From NCBI GenBank assembly GCA_963921275.4, contig OZ001293.3, positions 1,152,001-1,216,000 of the forward strand: DNA of 64,000 nucleotides, in the 5' to 3' direction. Made by a program: the position numbers and the translations under genes. Numbering within the stretch: the stretch's first letter is position 1; every line of letters begins with the position of its first letter. This document shows positions 3,348 through 54,000 of the stretch, piece by piece. The notes below the pieces were generated by a model that ran no database searches, was not told where the DNA came from, and saw nothing but the letters and a program-made list of their open reading frames with translations. Source of the DNA: an uncultured Hormoscilla sp. Lineage in GTDB: Bacteria > Cyanobacteriota > Cyanobacteriia > Cyanobacteriales > Desertifilaceae.

Positions 3348-3368
3348 GAAAGGTATTGTACTGTGCTT

Positions 3369-3543
3369 TCGATATCTCTGGGTCGAGGTATCTCCTGGTC
3401 GCTCGATGTTCCCCGAGGGCGCTAGGGGCACAAAGGGGGGAACATCGTACTCGCACAAAAGAGGAGATACCTCGCGCTACATGCGCTGCGCGCACCAGGC
3501 TGCAAACTCCGCCGAAGTGATCGCACTACCCCAGAGATATCGA
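3369..3543. repeat. Three nested small hairpin elements
   Basis: Nested inverted pairs TCGATATCTCTGGG/CCCAGAGATATCGA, CGAGGTATCTCCT/AGGAGATACCTCG and CGATGTTCCCC/GGGGAACATCG. Confidence 0.7.
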
Positions 3544-18011: not shown

Positions 18012-19772
18012 CTAGGTTTTCTTGGCACGGATAAAATACAACTGTTGATATAGAGTTCCATCTTTTTCTATAAAGGGGGATGGTTCTCTTTCTCTATCTG
18101 CTACTTTTTGATAGCTTTGCACAAACTCTCTGTGATAGTTAGCTAGGGGAACATTAACTCTACGGACAACTGCCCAATTTGCATCGCCTCGTTCTTCCCA
18201 GTTAATAAAATAGTCTAAGGATTGTCGCCATCACTTTGAATTCCTTTCCCCCAGTATTTCTCCATTAACCGATAGGTTAGCCTCGGACCATTTTTACTGG
18301 TAGCGATAAACAGAATTTCTCCTTCTGGTGCTAGATAGGAGCTTCCCTCGGCAATGAGAGTATCCATTATCAGTCTACCGCGATCGCCATTGCGGTTCCA
18401 CTCTCCGCCCCGAAATTCGTGGGCAGACTTAAGTCTTGCGTGCAATTGCTCTTCCGTATCAGGGAGTGCTGGAGGATTGAGGTAAACGCGGTCAATTTTA
18501 CCTGGTCGGGGTCGAGCTGGGAATCACTCCCCAACCCTCCAAGAGCGGAACCGGGCTTGCGACTTTCACCGCACCCGGCTACTGGGCAGTAGGGCCTTGT
18601 CATTGGTAGGATTACTGGGGATTACTCCCGTTGTCCCTCATCTCATGTAATTTCTCCCCTTTCCTGGTTGGTAAGTGGCGCTGCCGGATAACCTTTAGTA
18701 TTACCAATTTATCTGAGTCCGTTTCACCAGTTATCCCACCTTCGCATGCTAGGTATTGGGGCGTATTAGGGTTACTTTAGCCCGAGATTTCCTACTGTCA
18801 CCGACCCCTGTTTGCTTATCCCAGGCATTAATTAGGGCTTTTGCTTCTTGGGCCATCCCTCCCACCGTAGCTTGCGCTTCACATCTGACTGGTCTCGGTA
18901 GACAGCACACGATGGGTTACTTCGTTCCCTAGTATCATTTCACGATGCTTTTAGGTTCCTACTATACCCCGGGAGTTCTTTGAGTACGTTATTAGCCAGA
19001 TAGAAGAGCTAATACTAACTACCATTTCCCTTTTTTTTGGGCAAGCGCATAAGCCTTATTCCGCTGGTTCTAGTTAACGAGGTTTACATAGGTTCGCTTG
19101 TTCTAACCATTAGCATCTTTCCTAGCGGCGTCACCGGCTTAGGCTGCCAGTTATCCTACATTTAAGTCCTCGGGAGGCACCACGGCGATGTCGCTCCGTA
19201 GCACCTCCGACCGGTAGTACCCTCGACCCCCGTACCTGGGGAGGGGGAATTGAACCCCCATGATTACCAGAGTTCCTAATTTCTTAGGCTAGCGTTCCGT
19301 GTTTGACTACGTTAGACTAGAACGAATCGCACTCAATCTCTCGATTCCCTTTAACCGCAGCAAAGCTGTTGGACTGGAAACTTTGGAAATCCTTTGGGTT
19401 AAGACCATTCAGTTCCCAATTACGCTGGGCTAGGGAAACAGCATAGGGATTTAGTTCAGTACAAATTACCTTGGCTGCACCGCATTTACCAGCAACTATA
19501 CCGAACATTCCCGATCCCCCAGCAAAATCCATCACCACCTTCCCTGTCAAATCATCAGCAGCTATTAGCTGGCACATGGTCAGAGAAAATAGCGAAGAAG
19601 GTGTCCAGGCATTGGGATGGGTTTCTAGTAATATATCTAAGTCATTACTTAGACTATATTTGACAATTGTACCAGTCTCTAGGGACTGATAGTCAGTGTT
19701 ACTGTCTGCGTCATAGGTAATGATTTGCTTCTGTTCAGAAAATTTTTCTAAATCAAGTTTTGACATGTTCAT
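18012..19772 (-). pseudogene. Class I SAM methyltransferase (NPP motif) split by a group II intron, with a distal frameshift
   Basis: Exon 1 has MDFAGGSG. Splicing 19333 to 18503 gives REIE-GKIDRVYLNPPALPD in frame with ORF 18215-18445. A shift near 18217 would extend the frame to TAG at 18012. Confidence 0.8.
18504..19332 (-). ncRNA. ORF-less group II intron (829 nt)
   Basis: 5' GTGCGATTCGTTC pairs with GAACGAA; DV GTAGCCGGGTGCGGTGAAAGTCGCAAGCCCGGTTC; DVI ends CGACCCCGACC; removal restores the host frame. Confidence 0.9.
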
Positions 19773-36827: not shown

Positions 36828-37678
36828 ATTAGGGGTCGAACTGGGGGTCACCCCCCAACCCTCCCATTCGGAACCGGACATGCGACTTTCACCGCATCCG
36901 GCTACTGGGAAGTAGGGCCTTGTCATTGCTAGGATTACTGGGGATTACTCCCGTTGTCCCTCATCTCGTGTGATTTCTCCCCTTTCCTGGTTGGTAAGTG
37001 GCGCTGCCAGATAACCTTTAGTATTACCATTTTCAAGTCTGTTTTACCAGTCATCCCACCTCAGCTACGCGAGGTATTGGGGCTTGTTAGAGATACTTTT
37101 GCCCAAGATTTCCTACTTTCACCAACCCGCGTCTGCATGTTGAGGCATCCTTACCTATTCCTCAACGTATCCATAGGCATTACCCTAGGCATTAGCTTCT
37201 CGGGCTATCTCTCCCCCCGTGGCTTACGCTTTACATCTAACTAGTCCAAATGAGGACAGCACACGAGAGGTTACTTCGTTCCCTGGTATCATTTCGCGAT
37301 GCTTTTAGGTTCCTGCTTTCCTCCGGGAGTTCTTTGAGCACGATGCTGGCAAGCAGATACTACCAGCACTAACTACCATTTCCCTTTTGGGCCAGCGTAT
37401 AAGCCTTATTCCGCTGGTTCGGTGTAACGAAGTTTACACAGGTTTGCCTGCTCTAACCTTGAGCATCTTTCCTAGCGGCGTCACTGGCTTAGGCTGCCAG
37501 CTATCCTACATTTAAGTCCTTGCTTCGCACCACAGCGATGTGACTCTATAGCACTAAGGACCGGTGTTACCCCCGTACCTGGGGAGAGGGAATTTAACCC
37601 CCATGAATACCAGAGTTACCAGTTTGGACCTGGCCTAGTGTTCCGTATTTGACTACGTTAGACTAGAACGAATCGCAC
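36828..37678 (-). ncRNA. ORF-less group II intron (851 nt) in the 5' UTR of the sugar operon
   Basis: 5' GTGCGATTCGTTCTAG; DV GTAGCCGGATGCGGTGAAAGTCGCATGTCCGGTTC; ends CGACCCCTAAT; highly similar to 18504-19332. Confidence 0.88.
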
Positions 37679-37834
37679 AACTACCACTCCGTTAAGCTGT
37701 GAGGCATTTAGATTGCATAGTCCAAAATGGCCATGATGCCTGAAACACATATGGTGATGGACCTCCACGATTTTGCCTATATCCCAATATGTAGTTTAGA
37801 TGCGCGGTGGTCTGTGTCGGTCGCTTCACCCCAT

Positions 37835-40048
37835 TCACCCTTTAACTATGGCGCCAAAATCTGCTAACACGCGAGCATGATTTCGCAGTAACCCCAGCAA
37901 ATTCAGGCGGTTGCGCCGAATTTCCGGGTTCTTATCCATCACTAAAACGCTGTCTTCGCCGTCTAAGAAACGACTTACGAAGGGCGTTATTTCACTCAAG
38001 GCATCCACTAATTGCTGATAATTTCGCGTCGATGTCTCTCGGGTAGTGCGACTAGCGCTCCCGAGAGATATCGACGCTTGCGATGCCTGGGTTTTGGGCA
38101 GTAACTCTACTATGGCATTAAGGAATGCTTGTTCTGAAGATTTCTCAAACAGTTCGGGATTGACAAACCCTTTCGGTTCCAACTGGACTGTATCTAAATC
38201 CCCTTGGGCAGCTAAACGGGTGGAACGGTTCACGGTTTCGTAAATTGCATCTAATTGGCCGTTATTGCGGATTGCTTGCAGGAATAAGGCCCGATCGCGC
38301 AGGTCGAGCAAATCCTGCAATGCCCGATCGGCATATTCTGGGTCATTTTCCCCCAGCACAGCATTGACTAGATCGTAATCTATGCCCCGTTCCTCTTGCA
38401 ACTGGGTGCGGAGGCGTTGCAGGAAAAATTCTTGCAATGAGGCAATTAATTCTGATTTCGATGTGCGAGGCGTAGTGCGAGTAGCGCTCGCCGAGTACAT
38501 CGAATGGGCTATTTCTGTCAGCAGTTGCTGTAGGTTAATCCCTAAATTCCCTGCCCAAGTAATGTTCACGATCGCATTAGCGGCCCGCCGCAGGGCGAAG
38601 GGGTCTGACGAACCCGTGGGCACCATGCCCAAGCTGAAGATACTTACCAAGGTATCTAGTCTATCTGCTAACCCGACCACTTGACCCGCGATCGTCTGGG
38701 GCAATTTATCTCCTTTGCCTCGAAGGGGCAAGTAATGTTCAAAAATCGCCGTCGCGACTGCTTCTGGTTCCTGACTGGCGCGAGCATATTGCCTTCCCAT
38801 CACCCCTTGCAATTCGGGAAACTCGTACACCATCTGGGTTACCAAGTCCGCTTTACAGAGTAATGCTGCCCTTGCGATCGTACTGGTTTCTGCTGCCGAC
38901 AGTTGCAACTGTTGGGCAATTTTCAGGGCAATCTTACTCAGGCGCGAGACCTTTAACCGTACCGACTCCAAATCTTCCTGAAAGGTAACTTTTTCCAGTT
39001 GAGGCAAATAGCTTTCCAGGGGTTGGGCCAGATCTGCTTTATAGAAGAACTGGGCATCTGCTAATCTGGCGCGGATGACCCGTTCGTTCCCAGCGGCGAT
39101 AATATCTGATGAGGCTGGGTCTCCATTACTAACGGTGATAAAATAGGGGAGGAGTTCCCCAGTTCCCTGGTTTTTCAACACCGGAAAATACCGTTGGTGC
39201 TTCACCATGACCGTGGTGCTGACTTCGGCAGGCAACTGCAAAAACTCCGGGTCAAATTTCCCTACTACTGCGGTTGGGTATTCGACCAAGTTAGTGACTT
39301 CCTGCAATAATGCGGGGGATATTTCGGCATAACCATTCACTTTTTGGGCCGCCGCTTCCACGTCCTGTTTGATTTTAGCCTGACGCTGGGTCGGGTCAAC
39401 TTCTATATAGGCAGCACCCAGGCATTCGACATAATCACCTGCCTGGGGAATGGTCACGGGTTCGGGATGCAATACCCGATGACCCCTAGAGAGGCGATCG
39501 CTCTTCACGGTTTCGCTGCCATTTTCCCACATCAGGGGCAGCACCCGGTCGTCCAACAAAGTCACCAACCAGCGGATGGGGCGAGGAAAGCGCAAATCTC
39601 CATCGGCCCAGCGCATGAACCGCCTCCCCTCCAAGGCAAAAATCCATTGAGGGACCAGTTCCGTGAGAATTTCGGCAGCAGGGCGTCCTGCCTTTTGCTT
39701 GCGCAGGAAGATAAAATCCCCCTTATCCGTAGGCCGCACTTCCAGGGCCTCTACTGCTACTCCCTGCTTGCGGGCGAACCCTTCTGCTGCTTTCGTGGGT
39801 TTGCCATCCTTGAACGCCGCTTTGGCAGGCGGACCTTTCACCTCTTCTTCCCGGTCCGGTTGCTGGGCAGGCAAATCCTTCAGGAGTAAGGCCAGGCGGC
39901 GGGGTGTGGCGTAAAGTTCCAGGGTCTCTGGGGTTAGGAGTTGGTCCCCTAGGGACTGGGGGAGGCGGTCCCGCCACTGAAGCAAAGCATTATCCAGAAA
40001 ATCTGCTGGTAATTCTTCTGTACCGACTTCTAATAGGAATGTAGGCAT
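37835..40048 (-). CDS. glyS: Glycine-tRNA ligase beta subunit
   Basis: [46 protein letters not shown]; two in-frame hairpin insertions. Confidence 0.95.
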
Positions 40049-40169
40049 GAGACTGGAGTTAAGGGGCTAGTTTCCATAGTTTACAGTCCGATGGACACCG
40101 ACTGGATGATTATATCAAGTTTGGTTAAATGCTAGCAAGACGTAGGGTGGGCACCGCCCACCATTGACT

Positions 40170-40335
40170 TCTCCCACTATTCCTTGCGATCGCAGTCTGG
40201 CAAGAAAAGGAGACTCCCCTGCGCAGAGGCGCGATCGTTCTGCTTACTCCTCTCGCCGCTCTATATCCGCGTCGAGCTGCTGCTTATTATCCCAGTAATA
40301 AGCCAAGGCTGAGTAGATCTGACTCATATGGATGC
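40170..40335 (-). pseudogene. DUF433-like C-terminal remnant
   Basis: Minus frame reads SQIYSALAYYWDNKQQLDADIE with no N-terminus. Confidence 0.5.
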
Positions 40336-40450
40336 TGGAATTGCCTTTCTTCTGGACTCCAACCCTATGCTATCTGACCAGTGACTAATTCTATTACTTA
40401 TCGGAAGAGTTAGGTTCGTATCGGAGCGCTTTGCGCGCTTATTTCTCCGA

Positions 40451-41128
40451 TTAATCAAAAGCGGGTAATTGCCACAGCTGGGGTTGAAACTCTCTCAAGG
40501 AATTAAGCACCTGGTGAGCATTATGATACAATTGTTTATCTATGCTAGCGTCAGGGACAGCGACAACCGACATCCCAGCCCCGATCGCCGCTTTCAGGCC
40601 GGTTAAAGCATCTTCAAACACCAGACATTCTGCGGGGTCTGCATCCAGGCGTTGGGCGGTAATTAAGAAAATATCCGGTGCTGGTTTGCCGAGCGCGATC
40701 GCGGAGTCATTACCTTTAACAATGCAGTCAAACAGGGCTAACCATTCAGTATGATTGCTCGTTTTCAGTTCAAAGGAAAGACCAGCAGAACTGGTTGCCA
40801 CGGCCTGCCGAATGCGATGCTGATGCAGATGTTGGGTCAGGCGCACCGCACCTGGAAGGGGTTTGGCATCGGGTAACAAATCACGAAGCAATGGTTCTCG
40901 TTCTCGGAGAAAACTTTCCGGAGTCAGGGGCAAGTCTAGCATTTCAATTATAGTCCGGGCTGAGTCTAGGGCGTTTCTGCCAGATATCTGAGATTTTACC
41001 GACTCGGACAAGGTCTTGCCGTAGGGACGGGCGATCGCCTGGTAGACTCGATCGTAAATCGGTTCCGTGTCTAGCAGCAGACCATCTAGATCGTAAATGA
41101 CGTGAGTAATTTTTTTGAAGTCAGGCAT
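40451..41128 (-). CDS. HAD-superfamily phosphatase (IA, HDHD1/GS1-like)
   Basis: YDLDGLLLDTE, ATSS, GKPAPDIF, VFEDA. Confidence 0.9.
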   Translation of the reverse strand: MPDFKKITHVIYDLDGLLLDTEPIYDRVYQAIARPYGKTLSESVKSQISGRNALDSARTIIEMLDLPLTPESFLREREPLLRDLLPDAKPLPGAVRLTQHLHQHRIRQAVATSSAGLSFELKTSNHTEWLALFDCIVKGNDSAIALGKPAPDIFLITAQRLDADPAECLVFEDALTGLKAAIGAGMSVVAVPDASIDKQLYHNAHQVLNSLREFQPQLWQLPAFD

Positions 41129-41474
41129 GGGCAGATGACTCCACAATCCGCTCTGGTACAAGAATGCGCTGCGCGATGTGGGCGCGCTGCGCGTCTGGGC
41201 GCCCAGCGCATCGCCAATCTTCTCTGCCAGCAAGTATTATACTCCCCACAGGCCAGAGGTTGGGTTTCAGAGGTCAACCCAACCGACAATATAGGCGAAT
41301 GCAGGAGGGGGCCCTGTGAAAAAAGCCGGAGGCACTAAGCGAAGATCAAGTCCCTGGGGTCGAGGAACATCTGGTTACCAGTCAAGTTGTCGCCAGAGAT
41401 TAATATGTCATGCTGGTTACTATCCCAAGTATTCCCTGTCTGTGCTGGGATAGTCACGTTCCCATTGCCGATGT

Positions 41475-42575
41475 CTATCCCGCTTGAGGTAATGCTACTC
41501 CCTGCTTGCGGGCGAACCCTTCTGCTGCTTTCGTGGGTTTGCCATCCTTGAACGCCGCAGTGACGATAGTAGGATGAACAATCTTCTGGTTCTCCAGGTT
41601 TTCCTGATATATGACATTGCCATTCCCTTCTCCCACAAAAATATCTAGATCCCCGTCTCGATCAATATCGACAAGGGTGGGGCTGCTAAAGGACTCTACA
41701 TTTGCGACTCCAAAGGGGTTCGCTTCGGGTGTCCCGAAAGTAAGATCCTTAGCAGTACCCTGGTTTTCCTGATACATGACATTGCCATTATTTTCTCCCA
41801 CAAAAATATCTAGATCCCCGTCTCGATCAATATCGGCAAAGGTGGGGATGCTAAGCCTCCCTACATTTGTGATTCCAAAGGGGTTCGTTTGGGGTGTCCC
41901 GAAGGTGGGATTCTTAACGGTACCCTGGTTTTCCTGATATATGACATTGCCATAAACTTCTCCCACAAAAATATCTAGATCCCCGTCTCCATCAATATCG
42001 GCAAAGACAGGGATGCTATTGATCGATACCTTTGTGATTCCAAAGGGGTTCGTTTGGGGTGTCCCGAAGGCGGGATAAAGAGCGGTACCCTGGTTTTCCT
42101 GATATATGACATCGCCATTATTTTCTCCCACAAAAAGATCTAGATCCCCGTCTCCATCAATATCTACAAGGGTGGGGGTGCTAGCGAACCCTCCATTTGT
42201 GAGTCCAAAGGGGTTCGTTTGGGGTGTCCCGAAGGCGCGATAAAGAGCGGTACCCTGGTTTTCCTGATATATGACATCGCCACTATCTTTTCCCACAAAA
42301 AGATCTAGATCCCCGTCTCCATCAATATCGGCAAAGGCAGGCATGCTATAGTGCCCTCCTACAGAGGTGAGTCCAAAAAGGTTCGTTTGGGGTGCCCCGA
42401 AGGTGGGATAAAGAGCGGTACCCTGGTTTTCCTGATATATGACATTGCCATAATAGTCTCCATAAAAAATATCTAAATCCCCGTCTTGATCAATATCGAC
42501 AAGGGTGGGGCTGCCATAGTCCCCTATATCTGTGAGTCCAAAGGGGTTCCTTTGGGGTGTTCCGAAGGTTAACAT
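41475..42575 (-). CDS. FG-GAP/VCBS repeat protein, copy 1 (six repeats; C-terminus disrupted by a glyS-derived piece)
   Basis: ~56-aa unit FGTPQTNPFG..PTFADIDGDGDLDIFVGE..GNVIYQEN. Confidence 0.8.
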   Translation of the reverse strand: MLTFGTPQRNPFGLTDIGDYGSPTLVDIDQDGDLDIFYGDYYGNVIYQENQGTALYPTFGAPQTNLFGLTSVGGHYSMPAFADIDGDGDLDLFVGKDSGDVIYQENQGTALYRAFGTPQTNPFGLTNGGFASTPTLVDIDGDGDLDLFVGENNGDVIYQENQGTALYPAFGTPQTNPFGITKVSINSIPVFADIDGDGDLDIFVGEVYGNVIYQENQGTVKNPTFGTPQTNPFGITNVGRLSIPTFADIDRDGDLDIFVGENNGNVMYQENQGTAKDLTFGTPEANPFGVANVESFSSPTLVDIDRDGDLDIFVGEGNGNVIYQENLENQKIVHPTIVTAAFKDGKPTKAAEGFARKQGVALPQAG

Positions 42576-42667
42576 TGTCTTTTTCCTTTTTCAATTCGAT
42601 TTGGATTATTTGATTACGCTACGCGAATGCGCTGCTCGTCCCGTAAGGGATACGCCAATCTTCCCTG

Positions 42668-44989
42668 CTAACAATTATACTCCCCACAGGCCAGAGGTTG
42701 GGTTTCAGAGGTCAACCCAACCGACAATATAGGCGAATGCAGGAGGGGGCCCTGTGAAAAAAGCCGGAGGCACTGAGCGAAGATCAAGTCCCTGAGGTCG
42801 AGGAACATCTGGTTACCAGTCAAGTTGTCGCCAGAGATTAATATGTCATGCTGGTTACTATCCCAAGTATTCCCTGTCTGTGCTGGGATAGTCACGTTCC
42901 CATTGCCGATGTCTATCCCGCTTGAGGTAATGCTATTGCGATAGAACAATTCCTCGGGGCTAGTAATACTGGCGCTATGGGAGTCGATTTTGTCTATGCT
43001 ATCTTCAAAATCGGTAATGCCCCAGTTGGTTATATCATTTGACGGGCCAATCCTCCCTGGCCCAGGAGTGCCTGTAATGGGGTCTTCCACAGTGACGATA
43101 GTAGGATGAACAATCTTCTGGTTCTCCAGGTTTTCCTGATATATGACATTGCCATTCCCTTCTCCCACAAAAATATCTAGATCCCCGTCTCGATCAATAT
43201 CGACAAGGGTGGGGCTGCTAAAGGACTCTACATTTGCGACTCCAAAGGGGTTCGCTTCGGGTGTCCCGAAAGTGCGATCAAGAGCGGTACCCTGGTTTTC
43301 CTGATATATGACATTGCCATACGTTTCTCCCACAAAAATATCTAGATCCCCGTCTCGATCAATATCGACAAGGGTGGGGCTGCTATCGAGCCCTACATCT
43401 GTGAGTCCAAAGGGGTTCATTTGGGGTGTCCCGAAGGTGGGAGCAAGAGCGGTACCCTGGTTTTCCTGATATATGACATTGCCATCCGATTCTCCCACAA
43501 AAATATCTAGATCCCCGTCTCGATCAATATCGGCAAAGGTGGGGCTGCTAAAGTACCCTACATTTGCGACTCCAAAGGGGTTCGTTTGGGGTGCCCCGAA
43601 AGTGGGATTCTTAGCGGTACCCTGGTTTTCCTGATATATGACATCGCCATTATAGTTTCTCACAAAAAGATATAGATCCCTGTCTTGATCAATATCGGCA
43701 AAGGTGGGGTTGCTATCGTACCCTGCATCTGTGACTCCAAAGGGGTTCCTTTGGGGTGCCCCGAAAGTGGGATTCTTAGCGGTACCCTGGTTTTCCTGAT
43801 ATATGACATTGCCTAGATAGTTTCCCACAAAAATATCTAGATCCCCGTCTTGATCAATATCGACAAAGGTGGGGTTGCTATTGTACCCTGCATCTGTGAG
43901 TCCAAAGGGGTTCCTTTGGGGTGCCCCGAAAGTGGGATCCTTAGCAGTACCCTGGTTTTCCTGATATATGACATTGCCATTCAATTCTTCCACCACAAAA
44001 ATATCTAGATCCCCGTCTCCATCAATATCGACAAAGGTGGGGTTGCTATTGTACCCTACATCTGTGAGTCGAAAGAGGTTCCATTGGGGTGTCCCGAAGT
44101 CTTCCACACTCTTCTGGTTCTCCAGGTTTTCCTGATATATGACATTGCCATTCCTTTCTCCCACAAAAATATCTAGATCCCCGTCTTGATCAATATCGGC
44201 AAAAGTGGGGTTGCTATCGTACCCTACATCTGTGACTCCAAAGGGGTTCGTTTGGCGTGTCCCGAAGGTGAAATTCTTAGCAGTACCCTGGTTTTCCTGA
44301 TATATGACATTGCCATCCAATCTTCCCGCAAAAAGATCTAGATCCCCGTCTCGATCAATATCGACAAGGGTGGGGCTGCTAGAGTTCTCTAAACCTACAT
44401 TTGTGAGTCCAAAGGGGTTCGTTTGGGATTCCCCGAAGGCGGGATCAAGAGCAGTACCCAGGTTTTCTTGATATATGACATCGCCATACGTTTGTCCCAC
44501 AAAAAGATCTAGATCCCCGTCTTGATCAATATCGGCAAGGGTGGGGATGCTAGCGAGCCCTGCATCTGTGATTCCAAAGGGGTTCATTTGGAGTGTCCCG
44601 AAGGCGGGATAAAGAGCGGTACCCAGGTTTTCTTGATATATGACATTGCCCCTCCATTCTCCCACAAAAAAATCTAGATCCCCGTCTCCATCAATATCGG
44701 CAAAGGTAGGGGTGCTAGAGTACCCTCCATTTCCATAAGTATCGGCGGCAAAGATAGGGATGTTAACGAGCCCTCCACCTGTGAGTCCAAAGGGGTTTGT
44801 TTGGCGTGTCCCGAAGGCGGGATAAAGAGCGGTACCCTGGTTTTCCTGATATATGACATTGCCATTAATTACTCCCGCAAAAAGATCTAGATCCCCGTCT
44901 TAATCAATATCGACAAGGGTGGGGCTGCTAAGGTACCCTACATCTGTGAGTCCAAAGGGGTTCCTTTGGGGTGTTCCGAAGGTTAACAT
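42668..44989 (-). pseudogene. FG-GAP/VCBS repeat protein, copy 2 (about eleven repeats)
   Basis: ATG at 44989 with AAGGAG; TAA at 44900-44902; shift near 44670; long open frame 42668-44665. Confidence 0.8.
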
Positions 44990-45088
44990 TGTCTTTCTCC
45001 TTTTTCAATTCGATTTGGATTATTTGATTACGCTACGCGAATGCGCTGCTCGTCCCGTAAGGGATACGCCAATCTTCCCTGCTAACAA

Positions 45089-45398
45089 TTATACTCCCCA
45101 CAGGCCAGAGGTTGGGTTTCAGAGGTCAACCCAACCGACAATATAGGCGAATGCAGGAGGGGGCCCTGTGAAAAAAGCCGGAGGCACTAAGCGAAGATCA
45201 AGTCGCTGGGGTCGAGGAACATCTGGTTACCAGTCAAGTTGTCGCCATAGACTGATAGGAGTTGCCGGTGATTTCTCCAACGGTTCTCCGTCTGTCCGAC
45301 TACGGTCATGTTCCCATTTCGGCAAAGGTGGGGCTGCTAAAGTCCGCTACATCTGTGAGTCCAAAGAGGTTCCTTTGGGGTGATCCGAAGATTTGCAT
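45089..45398 (-). pseudogene. FG-GAP gene copy 3, collapsed remnant
   Basis: Same leader, half a repeat (MQIFGSPQRNLFGLTDV) and the same 3' tail as copies 1 and 2. Confidence 0.7.
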
Positions 45399-45520
45399 TA
45401 TCTTTCTCCTTTTTCAATTCGATTTGTATTATTTGATTACAGGTAGACCTTAATTTGAGTATGACGTATAGGCTACGATGTAATCTGTCAGCGCCGGTCC
45501 CTCCCCCCTCTCCTCCCTAC

Positions 45521-45858
45521 CATTCACCCTTTAACTATAGCACTAAAATCTGCTAACACGCAATGATTTCGCAGTAACCTCAGCAAATTCATGCGGTTGC
45601 GCCGAATTTCCGGTCTTATCCATCACTAAAACGCTGTCTTCGCCGTCAGGGGCAAGTTTAGCATTTCAATTATAGTCCGGGCTGAGTCTAGGGCGTTTCT
45701 GCCAGATATCTGAGATTTTACCGACTCGGACAAGGTTTTGCCGTAGCGATGCGCGATCGCCTGGTAGACTCGATCGTAAATCGGTTCCGTGTCTAGCAGC
45801 AGACCATCTAGATCGTAAATGACGTGAGTAATTTTTTTGAAGTCAGGCATGGGCAGAT
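45521..45858 (-). pseudogene. Fusion of the HAD 5' end to the glyS 3' end (deleted duplicate)
   Basis: 45645-45858 matches 40923-41137; 45521-45647 matches 37832-37963; joined at GTC. Confidence 0.85.
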
Positions 45859-45867
45859 GTCAGGTAA

Positions 45868-46328
45868 CTCAGGTTTGTGGTAATTCTAGGCTAAAACTCC
45901 AGCCATGTTGCTTGAAGCCCAAAGATTCGTAAAAGGCATGGGCCAGCATGGGCCCGATCGCGCTTCAGGTTAGAGGAGAGAGTTATTTTATAACATCCCG
46001 CCGCAGCACAAAGTTTGATTGCTACTTTCATCATCTCCGTACCTATCCCTTGACTCCGATAATGGGGGGAAATGGTCACAGCATCCAAGATAGCAAACTT
46101 ATGAAAACCTCTGTGCATCATCGTGGGCAGATACAACAGACTAAACGTACCTACAACCTCACCATCAAGAGAGGCAAGATAAACGTGATAGTCAGGCACA
46201 TTCGCCATTTCCGCCCAGATTTGGGACGCCTTCTCTTGGGGTATAGGAGGTTTTCCATCCATTTCCCCATAGAGGCGAATAAGAGTCTGCAAATCGGCAC
46301 GGGTAGCAAGGCATATATCGAGTTTCAT
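45868..46328 (-). pseudogene. GNAT acetyltransferase, frameshifted by a 10-nt tandem duplication
   Basis: YRSQGIG motif. Duplicated GGCCCATGC near 45935-45955 moves AHAFYESLGF out of frame. Confidence 0.75.
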
Positions 46329-46990
46329 GTTGCAGTATTGGGGCGAAACAATAAGCTCAACTCGAAATCATCTGAGAACTTCAGTTTTTCTTCGAGCATA
46401 TAGCCGAAATGTTCGTACATGAGTATATTCTGTTGGGTATCGGTTTCCACCCACACTCCCGTTGAGGTGGGGTGGGACTCAGATAAGGCGTGAATGCGAT
46501 CGAGCAATTGGCGGCCATAGCCCCGGCCCTGAAAATTCGGGTGAACGGCGATCATCACCAGGTGGTAATAGGGTGCGGTAGGGTAATGTGGTTCTATAGC
46601 TATCATCAATCTTAGCAGCCGCCAGACAGCAGGCAATCCTGCTCCCAGAGTTAGCCGCACTAGCAGTCGCAGTGCGCCCCAAGGATCCGCTTTGACTGCG
46701 GGCTCGTAGATGGCGGCCAGGCCAATAACTCGATCCTCCAGCATGACTGTCAACAGCGGCTGTTCGGTAGCAACGAGCATATCCAATAACAGCCGGAAGT
46801 ACAGGTGGGTGACTTGCCGTTTGCGATCAGGTAGCGTGCGCGCAGCGCGATCGCCCGCTACCCAAAAGAGGTAGTCGATCAGAGGCTGGGCAGTGAAAGT
46901 GTCAGCCAGCAGTTGAGTTACTTCATCATGTCTGGAGGCAGGAAGATCCATAACTCTAGCGGCATGGTTGGATCTGTCTGAAGCGGTCAT
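46325..46990 (-). CDS. GNAT acetyltransferase
   Basis: IAVHPNFQGRGYG, NILMYEHFGY; small in-frame repeat at a HIP1 site (46823-46854). Confidence 0.8.
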   Translation of the reverse strand: MTASDRSNHAARVMDLPASRHDEVTQLLADTFTAQPLIDYLFWVAGDRAARTLPDRKRQVTHLYFRLLLDMLVATEQPLLTVMLEDRVIGLAAIYEPAVKADPWGALRLLVRLTLGAGLPAVWRLLRLMIAIEPHYPTAPYYHLVMIAVHPNFQGRGYGRQLLDRIHALSESHPTSTGVWVETDTQQNILMYEHFGYMLEEKLKFSDDFELSLLFRPNTAT

Positions 46991-47082
46991 GGGATCTCTA
47001 GATGACTCAAGGGATGTGAATTGACAAGGCAGATTTTGATATGATATAGCAATACAATACTTCACCCATAAGGAGGCTTGTA

Positions 47083-48402
47083 GTGGTAAGGATTCTCCGA
47101 CTCGACCAGATGACATCAGCTGAACTCTCTTCGTTGAAAAGGCGAGCGGAGTTGGATATCGAAAAGGCACTTACGGTTGCCAAAGAGGTGATTGACAAGA
47201 TTCGCCAACAGTCCGATGCGGGAGTATTGGAATATGTCCGCAAGTTTGACTTTCCCGAGGCCCAACTGGATAACCTCAAGGTGAGCGATCGGGAGTTTGC
47301 TGCTGCCCGCGAGGCCATAGATCCGGAAATTAAATCGGCGATCGAACAAGCATTTGCCAATATCTGGGAAGTTCACCAGGGCCAGATGCCGGAGGAAATG
47401 CGACTGGCAGAAGTTGATACGGGAGTATTTGCGGGAGAAAAGGTGACCCCTGTAGTAAGTGCGGGACTGTACGTTCCCAGAGGTAAGGGCGCTTTCCCTT
47501 CGGTGATGCTGATGCTGACTGTCCCGGCGATGGTGGCCGAGGTCCAAAAGGTTATCGTCTGTACGCCTCCCGATAAACGGGGCAATGTCGAACCTGCTTC
47601 CCTTGTAGCTGCCGAGATGGCAGGTGTCAAGGATATCTATAAGCTGGGGGGAATACAGGCGATCGCGGCCATGGCGTTAGGTACGGAAACTATCCCTAAA
47701 GTTGACAAGATCACGGGTCCGTGCAATATCTACGGTTCGGCAGCTAAGCGACTATTATACGGCACGGTGGACGTGGGACTGCCCGCTGGACCCAGCGAGT
47801 CGATTATTTTGACAGACGAACATACCGATCCGCAGTTAGCGGCACTGGATCTGTTAATAGAAGCGGAACATGGTCCGGACTCCGCCGCCCTGTTAGTAAC
47901 TCACTCGGAAGCAGTTGCCCATCTAGCAGCAGAGTACGTACCTAATTATCTCAAAAAGCTGCCCGACTGGCGCCGGGAATTCTGTGAAGCTTCTCTTTCA
48001 TCCTATGGCGGCATCTTGCTGACTTCTAGCTTAGCAGAGTCGATCGCCTTTGTCAACGACTATGCCCCGGAACATCTGGAAGTACTAGTCAAGGATCCTT
48101 TGAGTATTATCGGACAAATTAAGAATGCGGGTGAGATTTTGCTCGGTCCCTACACCCCCATTCCTACAGCTAACTACTGTCTGGGTGTCAATGCTATTCT
48201 CCCAACTGGAGGTTTTGCCCGATCATACTCTGCTGTTTCTGTCTGGGACTTTCTCAAGCGATCGGGCATCGGCTATCTGACCAAAGAAGGGTTCGATCGC
48301 TTGCAGCATACAACTCAAACTTTAGCAGATTATGAGGGATTTCCTGCCCACGCCATGGCCATTCGCGAACGGGAACATCTGTTAAAAACAAACCAGGATT
48401 AA
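47083..48402 (+). CDS. hisD: Histidinol dehydrogenase
   Basis: GLYVPRG, GGIQAIAA, PAGPSE, EAEH, APEHL, NAILPTGG. Confidence 0.9.
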   Translation: MVRILRLDQMTSAELSSLKRRAELDIEKALTVAKEVIDKIRQQSDAGVLEYVRKFDFPEAQLDNLKVSDREFAAAREAIDPEIKSAIEQAFANIWEVHQGQMPEEMRLAEVDTGVFAGEKVTPVVSAGLYVPRGKGAFPSVMLMLTVPAMVAEVQKVIVCTPPDKRGNVEPASLVAAEMAGVKDIYKLGGIQAIAAMALGTETIPKVDKITGPCNIYGSAAKRLLYGTVDVGLPAGPSESIILTDEHTDPQLAALDLLIEAEHGPDSAALLVTHSEAVAHLAAEYVPNYLKKLPDWRREFCEASLSSYGGILLTSSLAESIAFVNDYAPEHLEVLVKDPLSIIGQIKNAGEILLGPYTPIPTANYCLGVNAILPTGGFARSYSAVSVWDFLKRSGIGYLTKEGFDRLQHTTQTLADYEGFPAHAMAIREREHLLKTNQD

Positions 48403-48792
48403 ATTATTGGGTGGGCCCTGCCCACCTGCCTTCTCATCCCAAATACAAATTACCGAGTCAAGCCAAGAGTCATAGCAGTTACAGCAGTTTTCATATCATC
48501 TTCTCTCTGATAATCAATCCTGAGTCGAGGTTAGTTCTAATTTTATATCTTACACCTCCTGGAGCAGCTCGGGCTTGCTATAATTTCAAATAACTCAATA
48601 TCTACGCTGTAATTATATTTATTGACTCCCTTGCAGATATAATGAGTAACAGTGTGAAATATAAAATATAGTTCGCAGTAGCGCTGCGTACTCTTCGTAT
48701 ACACAGTTAGGGCAGTTCTAGGATACTTTTACTTCAACCGGCACCTACTAGCTAGTTGCTAATCTGTGTCCCACTGTTGGAGTTGGAAACTT

Positions 48793-49110
48793 CTCTGCTG
48801 GGGTTTAAGACCTCTCTGCTGAGGTTTAAGACCTCTCTGTTGAGGTTTAAAACCTCTCTGTTAAGGTTTTAAACCTCTCTGTTGGGGTTTAAAACCTCTC
48901 TGTTGAGGTTTTAAACCTCTCTGTTTCTCTTAAGGTTTTAAACCTCTCTGTTGGGGTTTAAAACCTCTCTGTTGGGGTTTAGACCTCTCTGTTGGGGTTT
49001 AAAACCTCTCTGCTGGAGTTTAAGACCTCTCTGTTGGGGTTTAAGACCTCTCTGTTGGGGTTTAAAACCTCTCTGTTGGGGTTTAAAACCTCTCTGCTGG
49101 GGTTTAAAAC
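48793..49110. repeat. Tandem 21-22 nt repeat (CTCTCTGTTGGGGTTTAAAAC), about 14 units
   Basis: Read directly; no spacers between units. Confidence 0.9.
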
Positions 49111-49224
49111 GGGTCTTGTACCTCGTTGACAACGATTCACTGTTCCCTGTGAGCCGTTTTTGTAATAAAGCCCGCGCAGGCGGGCTTTGTTCGTGTAGCC
49201 GGACCCTTTAGGGTTCGGGCCGGG

Positions 49225-49373
49225 GGGTGTGGTCAAAACCCGTCGATCTAACATGGGTCCTCCCAGTCGTCGGATCCCCCAAAACCCCCCTTTTTAAGGG
49301 GGGCTTCCATAGCCCCCCCTTTTGGAAGGGGGGTTTGGGGAGATCCCTATGCAACAAATGCATGACCACACCC
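49225..49373. mobile_element. MITE with GGGTGTGGTCA terminal inverted repeats, second copy
   Basis: 9-bp TSD CGGGCCGGG; opposite orientation to 23846-23970. Confidence 0.78.
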
Positions 49374-49447
49374 CGGGCCGGGCGGCGACTCTGGTACAAT
49401 GGATGAGGAAATGCACCGAAAGCAGTGAGACTTAGGGAGGTAGAAAG

Positions 49448-49650
49448 TTGACCGGTCTAGATCCATTGAGCAATCCATTTTTCTGGAAAAAAGGCTTTGA
49501 CGACATTACCGAGGTCTGGGGTAATATTAGCCAATTATTCAAAAATAAGCAGCAAGCTAGGAAGGCATCCAAACAATACGCAAGCAAATATCTGGACAAG
49601 TATGGCACGATTAAGCTGCTGGGAATGTCCGACCCTATACCACTGTCGGT
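49448..49650 (+). pseudogene. N-terminal fragment resembling cyanobacterial NACHT-protein leaders
   Basis: ASKQYASKYLDKYGTIKLLGMSDPIPL, then runs into hairpin repeats. Confidence 0.4.
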
Positions 49651-49715
49651 TTTAACCGACATAAAGCCGAGTTCCCTGGCTCCGCTTGGGAACTCGGGGG
49701 GGGTTTGAACCCTCG

Positions 49716-49838
49716 CTATCTCGTGGGTAGTGCGAGTACGATGCTTCCCGGGTAGTGCGGTTACGATGTTTCCTGGGTAGTGCGATTAGCGCGGGAAACA
49801 TCGAGCGACTGGGGAACATCGGGCGACCACGAGATAAA
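49716..49838. repeat. Three nested small hairpin elements
   Basis: TATCTCGTGG/CCACGAGATA, CGATGCTTCCC/GGGGAACATCG and CGATGTTTCC/GGAAACATCG; each left arm is followed by GGGTAGTGCG. Confidence 0.75.
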
Positions 49839-49941
49839 GTTCGGGTGAGGATGAGTGATTGATGATAAGATTAAACTGCCTCTAATAAGAAGATCCAATG
49901 AGAATAAGGACAGTTTCCGCTGAATCAAGAGAAAATCACCC

Positions 49942-51387
49942 ATGACAACATCGACTCGCCTGCGGTATCTGGAGCGTACTCTTGTCCTTCAGGACATGCG
50001 CTGCGCGCCCAGCGTAGCGCCATCGGCACGCTCCAGACACCGCTATCACATCACCACATTCGGCTGCCAGATGAACAAGGCCGACTCGGAGCGCATGGCA
50101 GGTATACTGGAAAATATGGGCTTTGAGTGGTCAGAAGATCCCAACCAGGCGGAGTTAATCCTCTACAACACCTGTACGATTCGGGATAACGCGGAACAAA
50201 AGGTTTATTCTTACCTAGGCAGACAGGCGAAGCGCAAGCAAGAACAGCCCGGTCTCACCCTAGTAGTTGCCGGTTGTGTGGCCCAGCAAGCAGGAGAAGC
50301 ACTGTTGCGGCGAGTGCCAGAATTAGACTTAGTGATGGGACCGCAACATGCCAACCGCCTGGACTCGTTGCTAGAACAGGTATTTGATGGGAATCAGGTA
50401 GTGGCCACAGAACCCATTCACATCATGGAAGATATCACTAAGCCGCGTCGGGACAGCAGAGTGACAGCTTGGGTGAATGTAATTTATGGCTGCAACGAAC
50501 GCTGTACTTATTGTGTCGTACCCAATGTCCGAGGTGTAGAACAATCCCGCAGGCCAGAAGCAATTCGCGCGGAAATGACAGAAATAGGGCGCAGTGGCTA
50601 TAAAGAAGTGACCCTGCTGGGGCAAAATATCGATGCTTACGGACGGGACTTACCAGGCGTGACGGCAGAGGGGCGTCACAAGCATACCTTTACAGACTTG
50701 CTGTACTTCGTGCATGACGTGCCCAGAATCGATCGCATCCGTTTTGCCACCAGCCATCCTCGCTATTTTACCGAAAGATTGATTAAAGCTTGTGCGGAAT
50801 TGCCCAAAGTATGCGAACATTTCCACATACCCTTTCAGTCGGGGGATAACGATATCCTCAAGGCCATGGCCCGGGGTTATACCCATGAGAAATATCGGCG
50901 GATTATCGATAAAATTCGGGCCCTGATGCCAGATGCGGCAATTACGGCGGATGCGATTGCGGGATTTCCCGGGGAGACAGAAGCGCAGTTTGAAAATACC
51001 TTAAAATTGGTGGACGATATTGGGTTCGACCAGTTGAATACAGCGGCCTATTCGCCGCGTCCGGGAACCCCCGCCGCCTTATGGCAAAATCAAGTCAGCG
51101 AGGAAGTAAAGGGCGATCGACTGCAACGTCTGAATCATCTAGTGGCGAGGAAAGCAGCAGAACGTTCGCAACGGTATATGGGAAGGATAGAAGAGGTGCT
51201 GGTGGAAGATAAAAATCCCAAAAATGACCGTCAAGTAATGGGAAGGACGAGATCGAATCGCCTAACTTTCTGCGATTTCTCGGACCGTCCGCGGGCCGTG
51301 GGCGACCTGGAGGAATTAAAGGGTCAGTTGGTTAGGGTGAAAATTACGGATGTGCGGGCATTTAGCCTAACGGGCGATCTGGTTTAG
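49942..51387 (+). CDS. miaB: tRNA methylthiotransferase MiaB
   Basis: [30 protein letters not shown] and TRAM domain; in-frame repeat insertions near both termini. Confidence 0.95.
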
Positions 51388-51773
51388 CAGTTCGTAGGTT
51401 GGGTTGAGGCACGAAACACAACCGATGCATCTTAGCGTTTGCAGGTTCGTAGTAGTTAAGCAAATGTTAGGGAATCAGGGGGCGAATGCGCTGCGCGTCC
51501 CGTAAGGGATACGGGTTAACATTGTCAATCAAGAAACCAGGTTTCTTGATTGACAATTGAGATGCATCCTAGAGATCGCCCAAGACAGGAAATGATTAGC
51601 GATCGATCTAATCAGAGGCAAAGTTAGCTGCCAATCTTGTTTCGTTCGCATCTGACCATTGTTGATTATTGATTCAATAAGCAAGGAGACAAAATCATTA
51701 GAAAAGTTGAAGTGAGGGTGCAGTCGAGAAAAAACGCGATATAATGGAGATAGTAGGAAAAAGAGGAGGAGTG

Positions 51774-52838
51774 ATGGAGAAACGGCGAGTAGGACTGCTG
51801 TTTGGCGGTTGTTCGGGAGAACATGAAGTCTCAATAGCCTCAGCAAGGGCGATCGCCAGTGCGCTGTCAGAGTCCGAAAACACCAGCAAGTACGAACTAT
51901 GGCCAGTATACATCCAAAAGGATGGCATCTGGCAAGCAGTCCAAAGGGCCCGGCAGGTGCTAGAATCGGGTAAACCACAAGAGATGAGTTCTGGCAGATC
52001 CCTGTGGGAATTTCCTCCGGGTATGGAAAAAATAGATGTCTGGTTTCCCATCCTCCACGGTCCCAATGGGGAAGATGGCACGGTGCAAGGCTTGCTGAAA
52101 TTAATGCAAGTTGCCTGTGTGGGGACGGGGGTGCTGGGTTCGGCCCTGGGTATGGATAAGATTGCGATGAAAATGATATTTGCCCGAACAGGCTTGCCCC
52201 AGGTAAAGTATAGATCGGTTAATCGCGCCGATATATGGTCCAATCCTTGCGTGTTCCCGAAACTATGCGATCGCCTGGAAGATGCTTTGGGCTATCCCTG
52301 CTTTGTCAAACCAGCGAATTTAGGGTCATCGGTGGGCATTAGTAAGGTGCGATCGCGGGCTGAGTTAGAAGCGGCCCTGGATAATGCCGCTACCTATGAC
52401 AGACGTATAGTAGTAGAAGCAGCGGCGAACTACGGGCGGGAACTGGAATGTGCTGTTTTAGGCAACGATCGACCCAAAGCTTCTGTAGTAGGGGAGATTA
52501 CTTATAAAAGTGATTTCTATGACTATGAAACAAAATACATAGCGGGGAAAGCAGATTTAACCATACCAGCGCCGGTCCCAGCTGAAGTTGCTGCTAAGAT
52601 CCAGGAAATGGCCCTGCAAGCATTTGCGGCTATAGACGCAGCGGGTCTAGCAAGGGTAGACTTTTTCTATGTGGAAGCCACAGGGGCAGTCTTAATTAAT
52701 GAAATCAACACCCTGCCAGGGTTTACGGCCACCAGCATGTATCCTCAATTATGGGCGCAAACAGGCGTGTCTTTCCCTCAATTGGTAGACCAGTTGATTC
52801 AATTGGCCCTGGAACGACATTCCGGAAAAAGCCAGTAA
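51774..52838 (+). CDS. ddl: D-alanine--D-alanine ligase
   Basis: [40 protein letters not shown]. Confidence 0.95.
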
Positions 52839-53112
52839 TTATACTTTGAAAAGGATGGCGCTGCGCGTCCCGTAAGGGATACGACGAGCGCAAAATGGTG
52901 AAGTTGGTGTCATTGCTCGGGAGGCTTTTAAAGCAGTAACTGTGATATGTTTTACTGTCAGAGGGGTGTTACTCATATGCTAAAAAGGATCTCGAAATTT
53001 AGCTCCCCCCTTGCTCCGGACAGATTGGCTGCATTCTGAAGTGCAGTTCCTGACAGTTCGCAGTATATAGTGATTAGTTCTTGGTCCATAGGCTAGGACA
53101 AAAGGAGAATGT

Positions 53113-54000
53113 TTGATGAACAAAATGCTAGATAAAAGACTAGAACAGCGCCCGCTCCTAATGCTATTTAAGCAGATCGGGACTAGCCCCCTATTTATTT
53201 GGGGCGGACTGTTGACATTAATATTATCAGTTGCTAACATGGCTATCCAGGAACTGACGAGTCCAGGGCCCAGAGAACTAGCAGAAATTGCCGCTTCCCC
53301 AGTCCAGTCTGAGGCAGCAGAGATTTCTCCCCAGACAGATGAGGCCCTGCCCCTATGGTTATTTGGCGCGATCGCGATTGGTTGTGCCAGTGGTTCCTGG
53401 TTAATTTCCCAACAAATTAACCTTCGGCCAATGCTTGCCAATTGTATGGGTGCTATGGGCACGCGGCCTTTTCTGGGACAGGTGCGCCGACCCCTTCGTC
53501 TAACTAGGTCTCGAGCAACATTGGCCCAGCGGGAGGCGACAGAGTCAGGCAGAATTTTGTCCAAAATGGAGCGATCACGCCCGGCGGAAGTCACCAGGGT
53601 TCCGCAACAGACAAGAAGGTCTCAGGCACCACTCACCTGGTGTACCCGGGGAGCGCTACTCGCACTACCCCGGGCACACCGCCCAGAGGTCTCGCGGGCC
53701 ACAATTAGACGGCGATGTCTCCTGGGTAGTACGAATAGTGCTCCCAGGAGACATCGAAGCTCATATATGACGGGCCAATTACAGCAAGCACTTAGAACTC
53801 ACGGGCCACAAAAAGAAGAGGTGCAGATGCCCTCGACATGGCCGCCAAAGCAAAGGCGAAACGTTGTGGTGCCAGATCTTGAGAATTTGAAAAGCGATCG
53901 GACCTTTGGTGGCGATGGGAAACGAGGTGAAAAAAATATGGCCGAGATGATGGATATTCGCAAAAGGCAGTCGCTCGCTTCTGTGGTCCGAAATATATAA
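53113..54000 (+). CDS. Hypothetical membrane protein with two hairpin insertions
   Basis: 295 aa ORF, two hydrophobic segments, C-terminal LAEMMDIRKRQ-like motif. Confidence 0.6.
   Translation: MMNKMLDKRLEQRPLLMLFKQIGTSPLFIWGGLLTLILSVANMAIQELTSPGPRELAEIAASPVQSEAAEISPQTDEALPLWLFGAIAIGCASGSWLISQQINLRPMLANCMGAMGTRPFLGQVRRPLRLTRSRATLAQREATESGRILSKMERSRPAEVTRVPQQTRRSQAPLTWCTRGALLALPRAHRPEVSRATIRRRCLLGSTNSAPRRHRSSYMTGQLQQALRTHGPQKEEVQMPSTWPPKQRRNVVVPDLENLKSDRTFGGDGKRGEKNMAEMMDIRKRQSLASVVRNI

Follow-up and report, generated by a model that had tools for sequence, protein, structure and literature searches.

The stretch of DNA considered here, referred to as the window, comprises 64,000 nucleotides (nt) from an uncultured Hormoscilla sp. 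(assembly GCA_963921275.4, contig OZ001293.3, positions 1,152,001 to 1,216,000) and carries copies of a 45-nt hairpin, two of which are inserted in frame in glyS, the gene for the beta subunit of glycine-tRNA ligase. The hairpin belongs to a family of about 350 copies in this chromosome, which is not a product of chance. Its members are present or absent at a given site depending on the strain, add a characteristic net length, prefer certain targets, fold better on one strand, show a biased reading phase inside genes and, at orthologous sites, differ in blocks between strains. An earlier note on this DNA, made from the letters alone, had taken the hairpin for a tiny mobile element, in agreement with a stem that is kept by paired changes and with the better fold of one strand. 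As to its movement, a non-autonomous element that travels as a closed dumbbell of single-stranded DNA (ssDNA) and is moved in trans by an HUH transposase of the Y1 type is tentatively favoured, with a chance of being correct that falls somewhat short of even.

A relaxed pattern of the hairpin core has 519 matches in the assembly, 268 of them with paired arms (score of at least 7), as compared with 40 and 0, respectively, in the reversed genome. A profile trained on the paired-arm copies gives 353 matches with a score of at least 22 bits, whereas the highest score in the control is -2.6 bits; many further copies thus exist genome-wide. All copies lie on the chromosome contig, while the contigs C2 to C7 hold none in 156 kb, where about eight would be expected at chromosome density. 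Beyond this genome (G000), four Hormoscilla congeners (G001 to G004) were compared. A 20-letter pattern is found in all four of them (27-86 matches each, as against 160 in G000) and in none of 36 other genomes. The matches in the genome collection number at least 73, all of them from Hormoscilla among the matches listed. A pattern restricted to the ends occurs 118 times in G000, 32 times in G003 and at most four times per listed genome among the other 199, and a search of metagenome and viral collections for the hairpin returned no match. Judging from these searches, the family is found only in Hormoscilla and appears to be confined to this genus.

The unit consists of a C, a 13-bp arm, a 16-nt core, the partner arm, a G and a 2-nt tail. 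Counting the 5′ C, which is usually the target's own base, the arm has a fixed length of 14 bp; hence, the inverted arms previously described are real, whereas the range of 13-18 bp given for them is not, the excess being an extension into the flanks. The core contains a bulged T, a 5-bp stem with a T-G wobble and a 5-nt loop, and the foot of the hairpin reads K-C-G-A/G-T (K is G or T). An internal GTAG sits inside the stem, is variable and is lost in about one fifth of the copies (TT and CA core variants). The following counts refer to 196 simple copies with unique flanks, which were obtained from 227 non-nested copies after dropping 13 for poor pairing and 18 as flank duplicates. The tail reads G-N-A in 123 of the 196, and in 80 of the 96 GAT-armed copies.

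Within the window, all four copies originally claimed are present with coordinates shifted by a few bases. In the following list, copy coordinates give the 46-nt span from the 5′ C through the 2-nt tail.

37835..40048, minus strand: glyS, glycine-tRNA ligase beta subunit, 737 amino acids including two 15-residue inserts (TIGR00211, PF02092)
38020..38024, plus strand: upstream target box of copy 1 (-11 to -7), which matches A-11 A-10 T-9
38030..38075, plus strand: copy 1, composed of C, 13-bp arm, 16-nt core, arm, G and the tail AC
38459..38504, plus strand: copy 2, GAA tail, antisense and in frame in glyS
53113..54000, plus strand: conserved hypothetical gene hosting copies 3 and 4, an open reading frame (ORF) of 295 amino acids with no Pfam or NCBIfam match
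53636..53681, minus strand: copy 3, GGTG-type arms, tail other than G-N-A, in frame in the hypothetical gene in antisense orientation
53713..53758, plus strand: copy 4, compensated core variant, GAA tail, in frame in the hypothetical gene in sense orientation

Copy 1 is likewise antisense and in frame in glyS, to which it adds 15 codons; its site is empty in G001 (45 nt shorter) and shows an in-frame gap of 54 nt in G002. Copy 2 occupies a loop of variable length among orthologues, and its site is empty (-45 nt) in G001 to G004. Both glyS peptides read as the earlier note had stated and are missing from nearly all orthologues, i.e. from 27 of 29 at site 1 and from 29 of 29 at site 2, and the two orthologues with the site 1 insert are congeners bearing the same palindromic hairpin. 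In the G001 orthologue of the hypothetical gene, a gap of 51 nt corresponds to copy 3 (80% identity, gap edges uncertain) and one of 45 nt to copy 4, which follows the GC of a HIP1-like site with a full A-11 A-10 T-9 A-7 box. The ORF at 53113-54000 is a real gene, and both inserts are missing from this orthologue. The coding sequence around the two glyS copies shows smaller differences as well. Next to site 2 (38452-38456, plus strand), G000 and G003 share a two-base change relative to G002 and G004, and the empty allele of G003 differs at the junction base (Gln to His); these base changes are possibly footprints of earlier insertion and loss. Compensating 3-nt indels within about 90 nt distinguish G000 from G002-G004 at 38630-38722.

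For a broader view of insertion, G000 was compared with 2.3 Mb of DNA from relatives, selected for the most part around copies already known, and with 73 short loci. A row was counted where the flanks could be matched and the lengths differed by 35-56 nt, which gave 41 rows at about 38 distinct sites, with a net gain of 45 nt in 31, 44 nt in five, 41 nt in three and 46 nt in two. None of the 41 rows shows a target duplication, and the left and right junction dinucleotides are identical in only two of the listed classes, amounting to three of the 196 copies. The dinucleotide of the empty allele is kept on the left in 13 rows, represented by its C only in six, kept on the right in six, mixed in two and retained on neither side in four. 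A G-N-A tail is present in each of the 19 rows in which the left side retains the target dinucleotide or its C, whereas neither is retained there in any of the 14 rows with another tail. Since the left-kept rows all end in G-N-A, 43 nt and the bases N-A are added in the usual event immediately 3′ of a target C, and this C then pairs with the last G of the element. In a minority of events, the element brings its own 5′ C and target bases are retained on the right. The earlier note had proposed to test coding copies for a length bias to multiples of three. A net gain of 45 nt is indeed seen at 20 of 22 coding sites, yet it also prevails at 10 of 15 non-coding ones; therefore, the unit length is largely set by the mechanism and not only by selection for the frame. 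Loss is documented as well by one site that is filled in G000 and G001 and empty in G002 and G004, and the in-frame gap of 54 nt at glyS site 1 of G002 is a further case.

Target flanks share a preference for A-10 T-9 and K-2 C-1, followed by G+1. Among the 196 copies, A-11 occurs in 91, A-10 in 133, T-9 in 128, A-7 in 82, G or T at -2 in 163, C-1 in 190 and G+1 in 111; the motif was counted on filled alleles, and the upstream flanks are nearly the same in the listed empty alleles. The only significant link between target and element connects base -2 with the first tail base (mutual information 0.198 versus a permutation 95% value of 0.114). Arms acting as programmable guides were rejected, the arm sequence being unlinked to the upstream box in the 196 copies, and so was HIP1 as a targeting rule, as only seven of 196 targets hold the HIP1 core; in HIP1, insertions are seen after base 2 or base 6. 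An upstream motif at a distance of one helical turn from the cut suggests a protein that reads duplex DNA. This and the junction classes described above (left 13, right 6, mixed 2, only C 6 rows) could also be explained if a recombinase, or a host structure-specific nuclease together with repair, cuts both the target and an extruded cruciform with a 2-nt stagger, after which the junction heteroduplex is resolved to donor or target. Such a double-strand enzyme is quite unlikely, however. The five rows with +44 and the two with +46 nt fit no single fixed stagger, and some of the right-kept empty alleles may be later deletions, as the site filled in G000 and G001 and empty in G002 and G004 illustrates. 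Moreover, the sole IS110 match in G000 is broken; the serine and tyrosine recombinase families were not searched.

The fate of copies inside genes was analyzed by removing 214 simple copies in silico, re-calling genes with a hexamer caller and comparing reading phases with the expectation under the target profile. Intergenic copies number 140 as against 83 expected, and the 74 genic ones comprise 52 in antisense and 22 in sense orientation. The sense phase with two stops is observed three times instead of the 30 expected, and the two open hydrophobic phases are depleted as well (3 versus 21 and 5 versus 15.5 expected). In contrast, the antisense phase that reads as a hydrophilic linker of S, T, P, G, E and R, as in both glyS inserts, is found in 38 copies versus 20 expected. 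Where the antisense phase can meet a stop, 10 of 11 copies are stop-free loop variants. The earlier observation that all copies leave the ORF open holds in the window and in 71 of the 74 genic copies genome-wide. This phase bias would not be shown by an element that is removed from the RNA; therefore, in-frame copies are likely translated and not spliced, with 15 extra amino acids in glyS as an example.

The suggestion that the hairpin is a micro-intron, or else a ribosome-bypass element that is removed from the message, can be dismissed for the most part on the same grounds. A stable RNA fold and two sense copies with in-frame stops in called genes speak in favor of it. Yet the prevalence of antisense copies, the avoidance of the stop phase, the excess of the hydrophilic phase and the stop-free variants all contradict removal, and orientation together with phase bias led to rejection of the micro-intron, so that removal from the message is very improbable. 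An Rfam scan of the window gave two group II intron matches only and none at the hairpin copies. The two RNA runs considered (X1 and X2) derive from other strains (about 8% divergent) and contain empty alleles.

The arms follow a strong consensus. Of 2744 arm cells, 2506 are Watson-Crick pairs, and 502 depart from the consensus pair on both sides. In a covariation sample of 44 copies, which stem from five genomes and comprise the 4 of the window and 40 of the 73 loci, with the inner pairs fixed by the search pattern and kinship uncontrolled, changes on both sides occur at 12 of 19 pairs, and none of 500 shuffles reaches the score. A core variant in 17 of the 196 copies retains the T-G wobble and swaps G-C for A-T. 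The strand with the wobble folds better in 176 of the 196 copies with DNA energies and in 188 with RNA energies. Hence, of the proposal that the element is conserved in structure rather than in sequence, the structural part stands, while the sequence part has to be qualified in view of the arm consensus, and part of the covariation is explained by the rewriting of resident copies in blocks. At 24 loci common to several strains, six exchange the same 5-nt block before the core, one has exchanged both arms for the arms of a different subfamily, its flanks showing 0 of 82 differences, and two display single paired changes. At glyS site 1, G000 has the original pair of arms, G004 a changed left arm alone and G003 changes in both. 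Overall, copies differ by 0.066 per site and their flanks by 0.057, i.e. the block pattern is unusual and not the rate. From these patterns, we infer transfer from copy to copy followed by correction from arm to arm; independent re-insertion of sibling copies is the alternative.

Conceivably, the family is the relic of an earlier burst that has no dedicated enzyme today and whose copies spread through template switching and short-patch conversion during replication and repair. This would fit the 180 distinct 44-mers among the 196 copies, the frequent rewriting in place and the failure to find a partner gene in G000. It is nevertheless improbable, given that clean 45-nt gains at unrelated sites with a positional motif need a step that chooses the site, and given the many sites that differ between close strains.

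Copies are also found within each other, and the window contains two nested stacks that are absent from the earlier note:

3368..3542, minus strand: nested stack of the same hairpin family, three element levels plus another small repeat, ending 20 nt before the 5′ end of a group II intron
49714..49836, plus strand: three-level nested stack with truncated right end, hosted by a REP-like repeat

Nested copies display a few fixed junction modules (26 and 65 unique cases), and nests in the loop have a net gain of 43 nt. The fixed modules suggest founder events that were spread by copying.

When the ends of the usual 45-mer are joined, the stem is closed by a loop of three bases, G-N-A, on top of a C-G pair, which is the motif of DNA mini-hairpins of great stability. 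According to PMC13037366, GCGNAGC mini-hairpins show an unusual stability in DNA that is less marked in RNA. This joint, together with the strand asymmetry and the lack of a duplication, points to HUH chemistry on ssDNA. In the favoured ssDNA dumbbell mechanism, cuts in the folded top strand would fall 3′ of both the target-side C and the G-N-A tail, and joining of the ends would give a C-[GNA]-G mini-hairpin loop at the joint. The circle may then be reopened at the GNA joint and joined 3′ of a KC site. In a minority of events, this step could occur in a register shifted by 1-2 nt, whereby the junction dinucleotide would stem from either donor or target. Free copies might also anneal to residents and overwrite short blocks, with the changed arm being copied onto its partner. 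Finally, selection would remove genic copies that read as stops or as hydrophobic peptides. A head-to-tail joint with exactly the predicted junction exists at one site, common to G000 and G002.

IS200/IS605 elements insert 3′ of a short motif and produce no target duplication. Passages on their TnpA describe strand-specific ssDNA transposition with cleavage sites chosen by guides (PMC8266576), and circular intermediates in transposition are covered in parts of PMC6006769. Among the Y1 genes of Hormoscilla, class 2 is common. One class-2 Y1 family, P0003, has in Hormoscilla a downstream hairpin with a foot similar to that of the element and scores below the NCBIfam cut-off for RAYT (63 of 80 bits); as a partner, it is at best a weak lead.

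Several points weigh against the dumbbell mechanism. No cognate enzyme was found among the Y1 genes of Hormoscilla examined, and the expectation of a co-occurring trans factor flanked by the hairpin was not borne out among them. Each of the three Y1 genes of G000 has different repeats of its own at its flanks. P0003 is present only as a remnant in G000, although this genome has the most copies (160 versus 27-86); it occurs in 63 of 301 genomes of the order, 59 of them outside the genus, where the foot pattern of the element does not exceed background; and the P0003 hairpin, with 9 loci and none of them in G000 or G002, is not a dispersed one. The circle itself is a prediction and its GNA joint is derived from the ends of the element, 73 of the 196 copies have a tail other than G-N-A, and the tandem joint in G000 and G002 could just as well have arisen from a second insertion at that site. 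With RNA energies favoring the same strand, folding cannot separate DNA from RNA. No clear replication-strand bias of the copies is seen, with a GC skew that is weak; a distal A-10 T-9 box is not known as a feature of target choice by HUH enzymes; and simple insertion leaves the loop nests with net +43 nt and fixed modules unexplained.

Further searches for a partner gave similar results. Only two overlapping loci among the 22 Y1 loci in G001-G004 hold a copy, about 1.1 kb from a gene fragment, and inspection of the first 90 residues of 31 genes with hairpins on both sides identified no transposase. An intact gene for a RAYT-like protein of 177 amino acids in G000 (C1:2007191-2007724, minus strand), which was missed by the Pfam genome search, is flanked by its own REP-like repeats and differs from G003 in its upstream neighbourhood. 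G000 further contains six near-identical TnpB-like elements (C1:50955, 194860, 1400935, 3756744, 4428171 and 6147446), none of which has a TnpA (Y1) match at its locus; the ends of TnpB-only insertion sequences (6 matches) show no resemblance, by eye, to those of the element. Downstream of the P0003 Y1 gene (L206-L235 and L236-L253), there is a conserved non-coding tail of two motifs, the second of which lies 84-85 nt after the first, behind a promoter-like stretch, and is followed by a variable region and a short GC hairpin. This tail could code for a small RNA or represent the end of a transposon.

As an alternative to the dumbbell, the hairpin might spread through RNA. Here, the reverse transcriptases (RTs) of group II introns would copy the hairpin RNA into target nicks by 1-2 nt priming on KC, and the tail would be untemplated. 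The chromosome has 93 RT-domain matches and 440 group II intron 5′ starts, and 79 and 46 RT matches occur in the two better congener assemblies, compared with 1-6 in outsiders to the family. The first 6-8 letters of the core are identical to those of the intron 5′ end, base -2 of the target and the first base of the tail vary together, and the intron 5′ exons prefer A-15 A-14, letters similar to those of the element's box. However, the box of the introns is more distant by 4 nt and not identical in its details, and a sense bias is seen neither in genes nor between them (42 versus 31). The 2.6 kb downstream of intron starts show no enrichment of elements (37 versus 65 expected), and G001 and G003 carry the element with just 3 and 8 RT matches, respectively, in fragmented assemblies. 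A fixed 2-nt tail is tidier than untemplated addition, and both expansions could simply reflect weak selection. Taken together, the RNA route appears unlikely.

The group II introns are conspicuous in their own right. The 440 5′ starts in G000 (383 with unique flanks) include two families of 153 and 92 copies and outnumber the 93 RT matches, and most of the introns appear to have no ORF. In the window, they are found on the minus strand at 36828-37679 (short, just downstream of glyS), 18505-18583 and 1296-3347.

In comparison with known systems, the element works like the small dispersed repeats (SDRs) of Nostoc, REPINs and Rickettsia palindromic elements (RPEs), and it fails a defining feature of each known family tested. 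SDR1-8 of the Nostocaceae (Elhai et al. 2008, Genome Res 18:1484) reportedly also have a structure kept by compensatory changes and in-frame genic copies. Structural conservation is hence a likeness to SDRs and not, as had been proposed, a difference from them, whereas the length of 45 nt sets the element apart from SDRs of reportedly 21-27 nt. Both are very small mobile repeats of cyanobacteria with precise insertion and no known enzyme, as SDRs are portrayed in passages of PMC4390886, PMC5861425 and PMC3116915. The element occurs outside the Nostocaceae, where SDR-like repeats were not found according to PMC5861425, and its position in HIP1, where this site is used at all, differs from that of SDR5, which is described in part of PMC4390886 as inserting between bases 3 and 4.

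With REPs and REPINs, the element shares hundreds of short, lineage-specific and non-autonomous hairpins, which are sometimes in frame in genes, and a likely handling as single strands (passages of PMC3116915, PMC6006769, PMC8266576 and PMC3733652). It has no GTAG or GGAG 5′ of the hairpin foot, unlike REPs and REPINs with RAYT, and no tnpA-REP gene flanked by it was found among the Y1 loci examined. A fixed unit length, exact ends and a distal target box distinguish it further. REPs are mainly extragenic; of 214 simple copies of the element, 140 are intergenic and 74 genic by an own gene caller. The lack of a target duplication, insertion 3′ of a short motif and strand asymmetry are reminiscent of IS200/IS605 derivatives. 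Yet the whole element is one hairpin in which no separate left and right ends or guide tetranucleotides were identified, no parent insertion sequence with the same ends was found (one Y1 family shows partial foot resemblance), and no clear lagging-strand bias was seen. The absence of a target-site duplication in the 41 rows also separates it from classical MITEs (DDE). RPE-1 measures about 100-150 nt. Compared with it by description only, the element is shorter, nests in itself and follows defined junction and target rules. Passages of PMC3733652 describe RPEs as palindromes in frame in housekeeping genes of a host-associated bacterium that add peptide loops, as the hairpin probably does. No description of the hairpin element was found in the literature; the primary SDR paper, represented by citing passages, may bear on novelty, and a term search of the Hormoscilla genome paper PMC6520454 gave no passage on such repeats. 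The element is real and new among tiny mobile palindromes, and its insertion, junction and target rules are specific enough to be tested.

How repeats of less than 50 nt such as SDRs, RPEs and many REPs move is a long-open question, for which this family offers dozens of natural pairs of empty and filled sites with precisely defined junctions, together with a motif at the target and a joint predicted for the circle. In glyS and other essential genes, new protein sequence is likely gained in steps of 15 residues, and the reading phase bears the mark of selection. More speculatively, and rather doubtful as a whole, the hairpin could be a near-minimal transposon, i.e. a 45-nt ssDNA dumbbell with a GNA cap that is moved by an enzyme of no described family; this enzyme would recognize the A-10 T-9 box at a distance of one helical turn from a cut between KC and G. 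Its free copies would rewrite residents and thereby form a genome-wide pool that shuffles peptide loops in essential proteins, and loss could leave codon-changing footprints of 1-2 nt. If it is true that one enzyme inserts a 45-nt hairpin of variable interior without duplication, a compact tool for in-frame insertion might result.

Related repeats were noted in passing. A sister family has the same ends and upstream bias with another core in a unit of 42 nt; at least 22 of its copies share one core. Longer sister units of 56-66 nt have these ends as well; examples of sister units are found in G000 at C1 672259, 1600634 and 5677662, all on the plus strand. Other small repeats, namely GC-rich ones of about 25 nt and REP-like hairpins, enter the loop of the hairpin or replace the block before its core, as at C1:313722-313792 and 5697210-5697280 (both on the minus strand) and elsewhere. 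Finally, contig C3 of the assembly (31 kb) is unlike the rest with a GC content of 17.6% and possibly comes from another organism.

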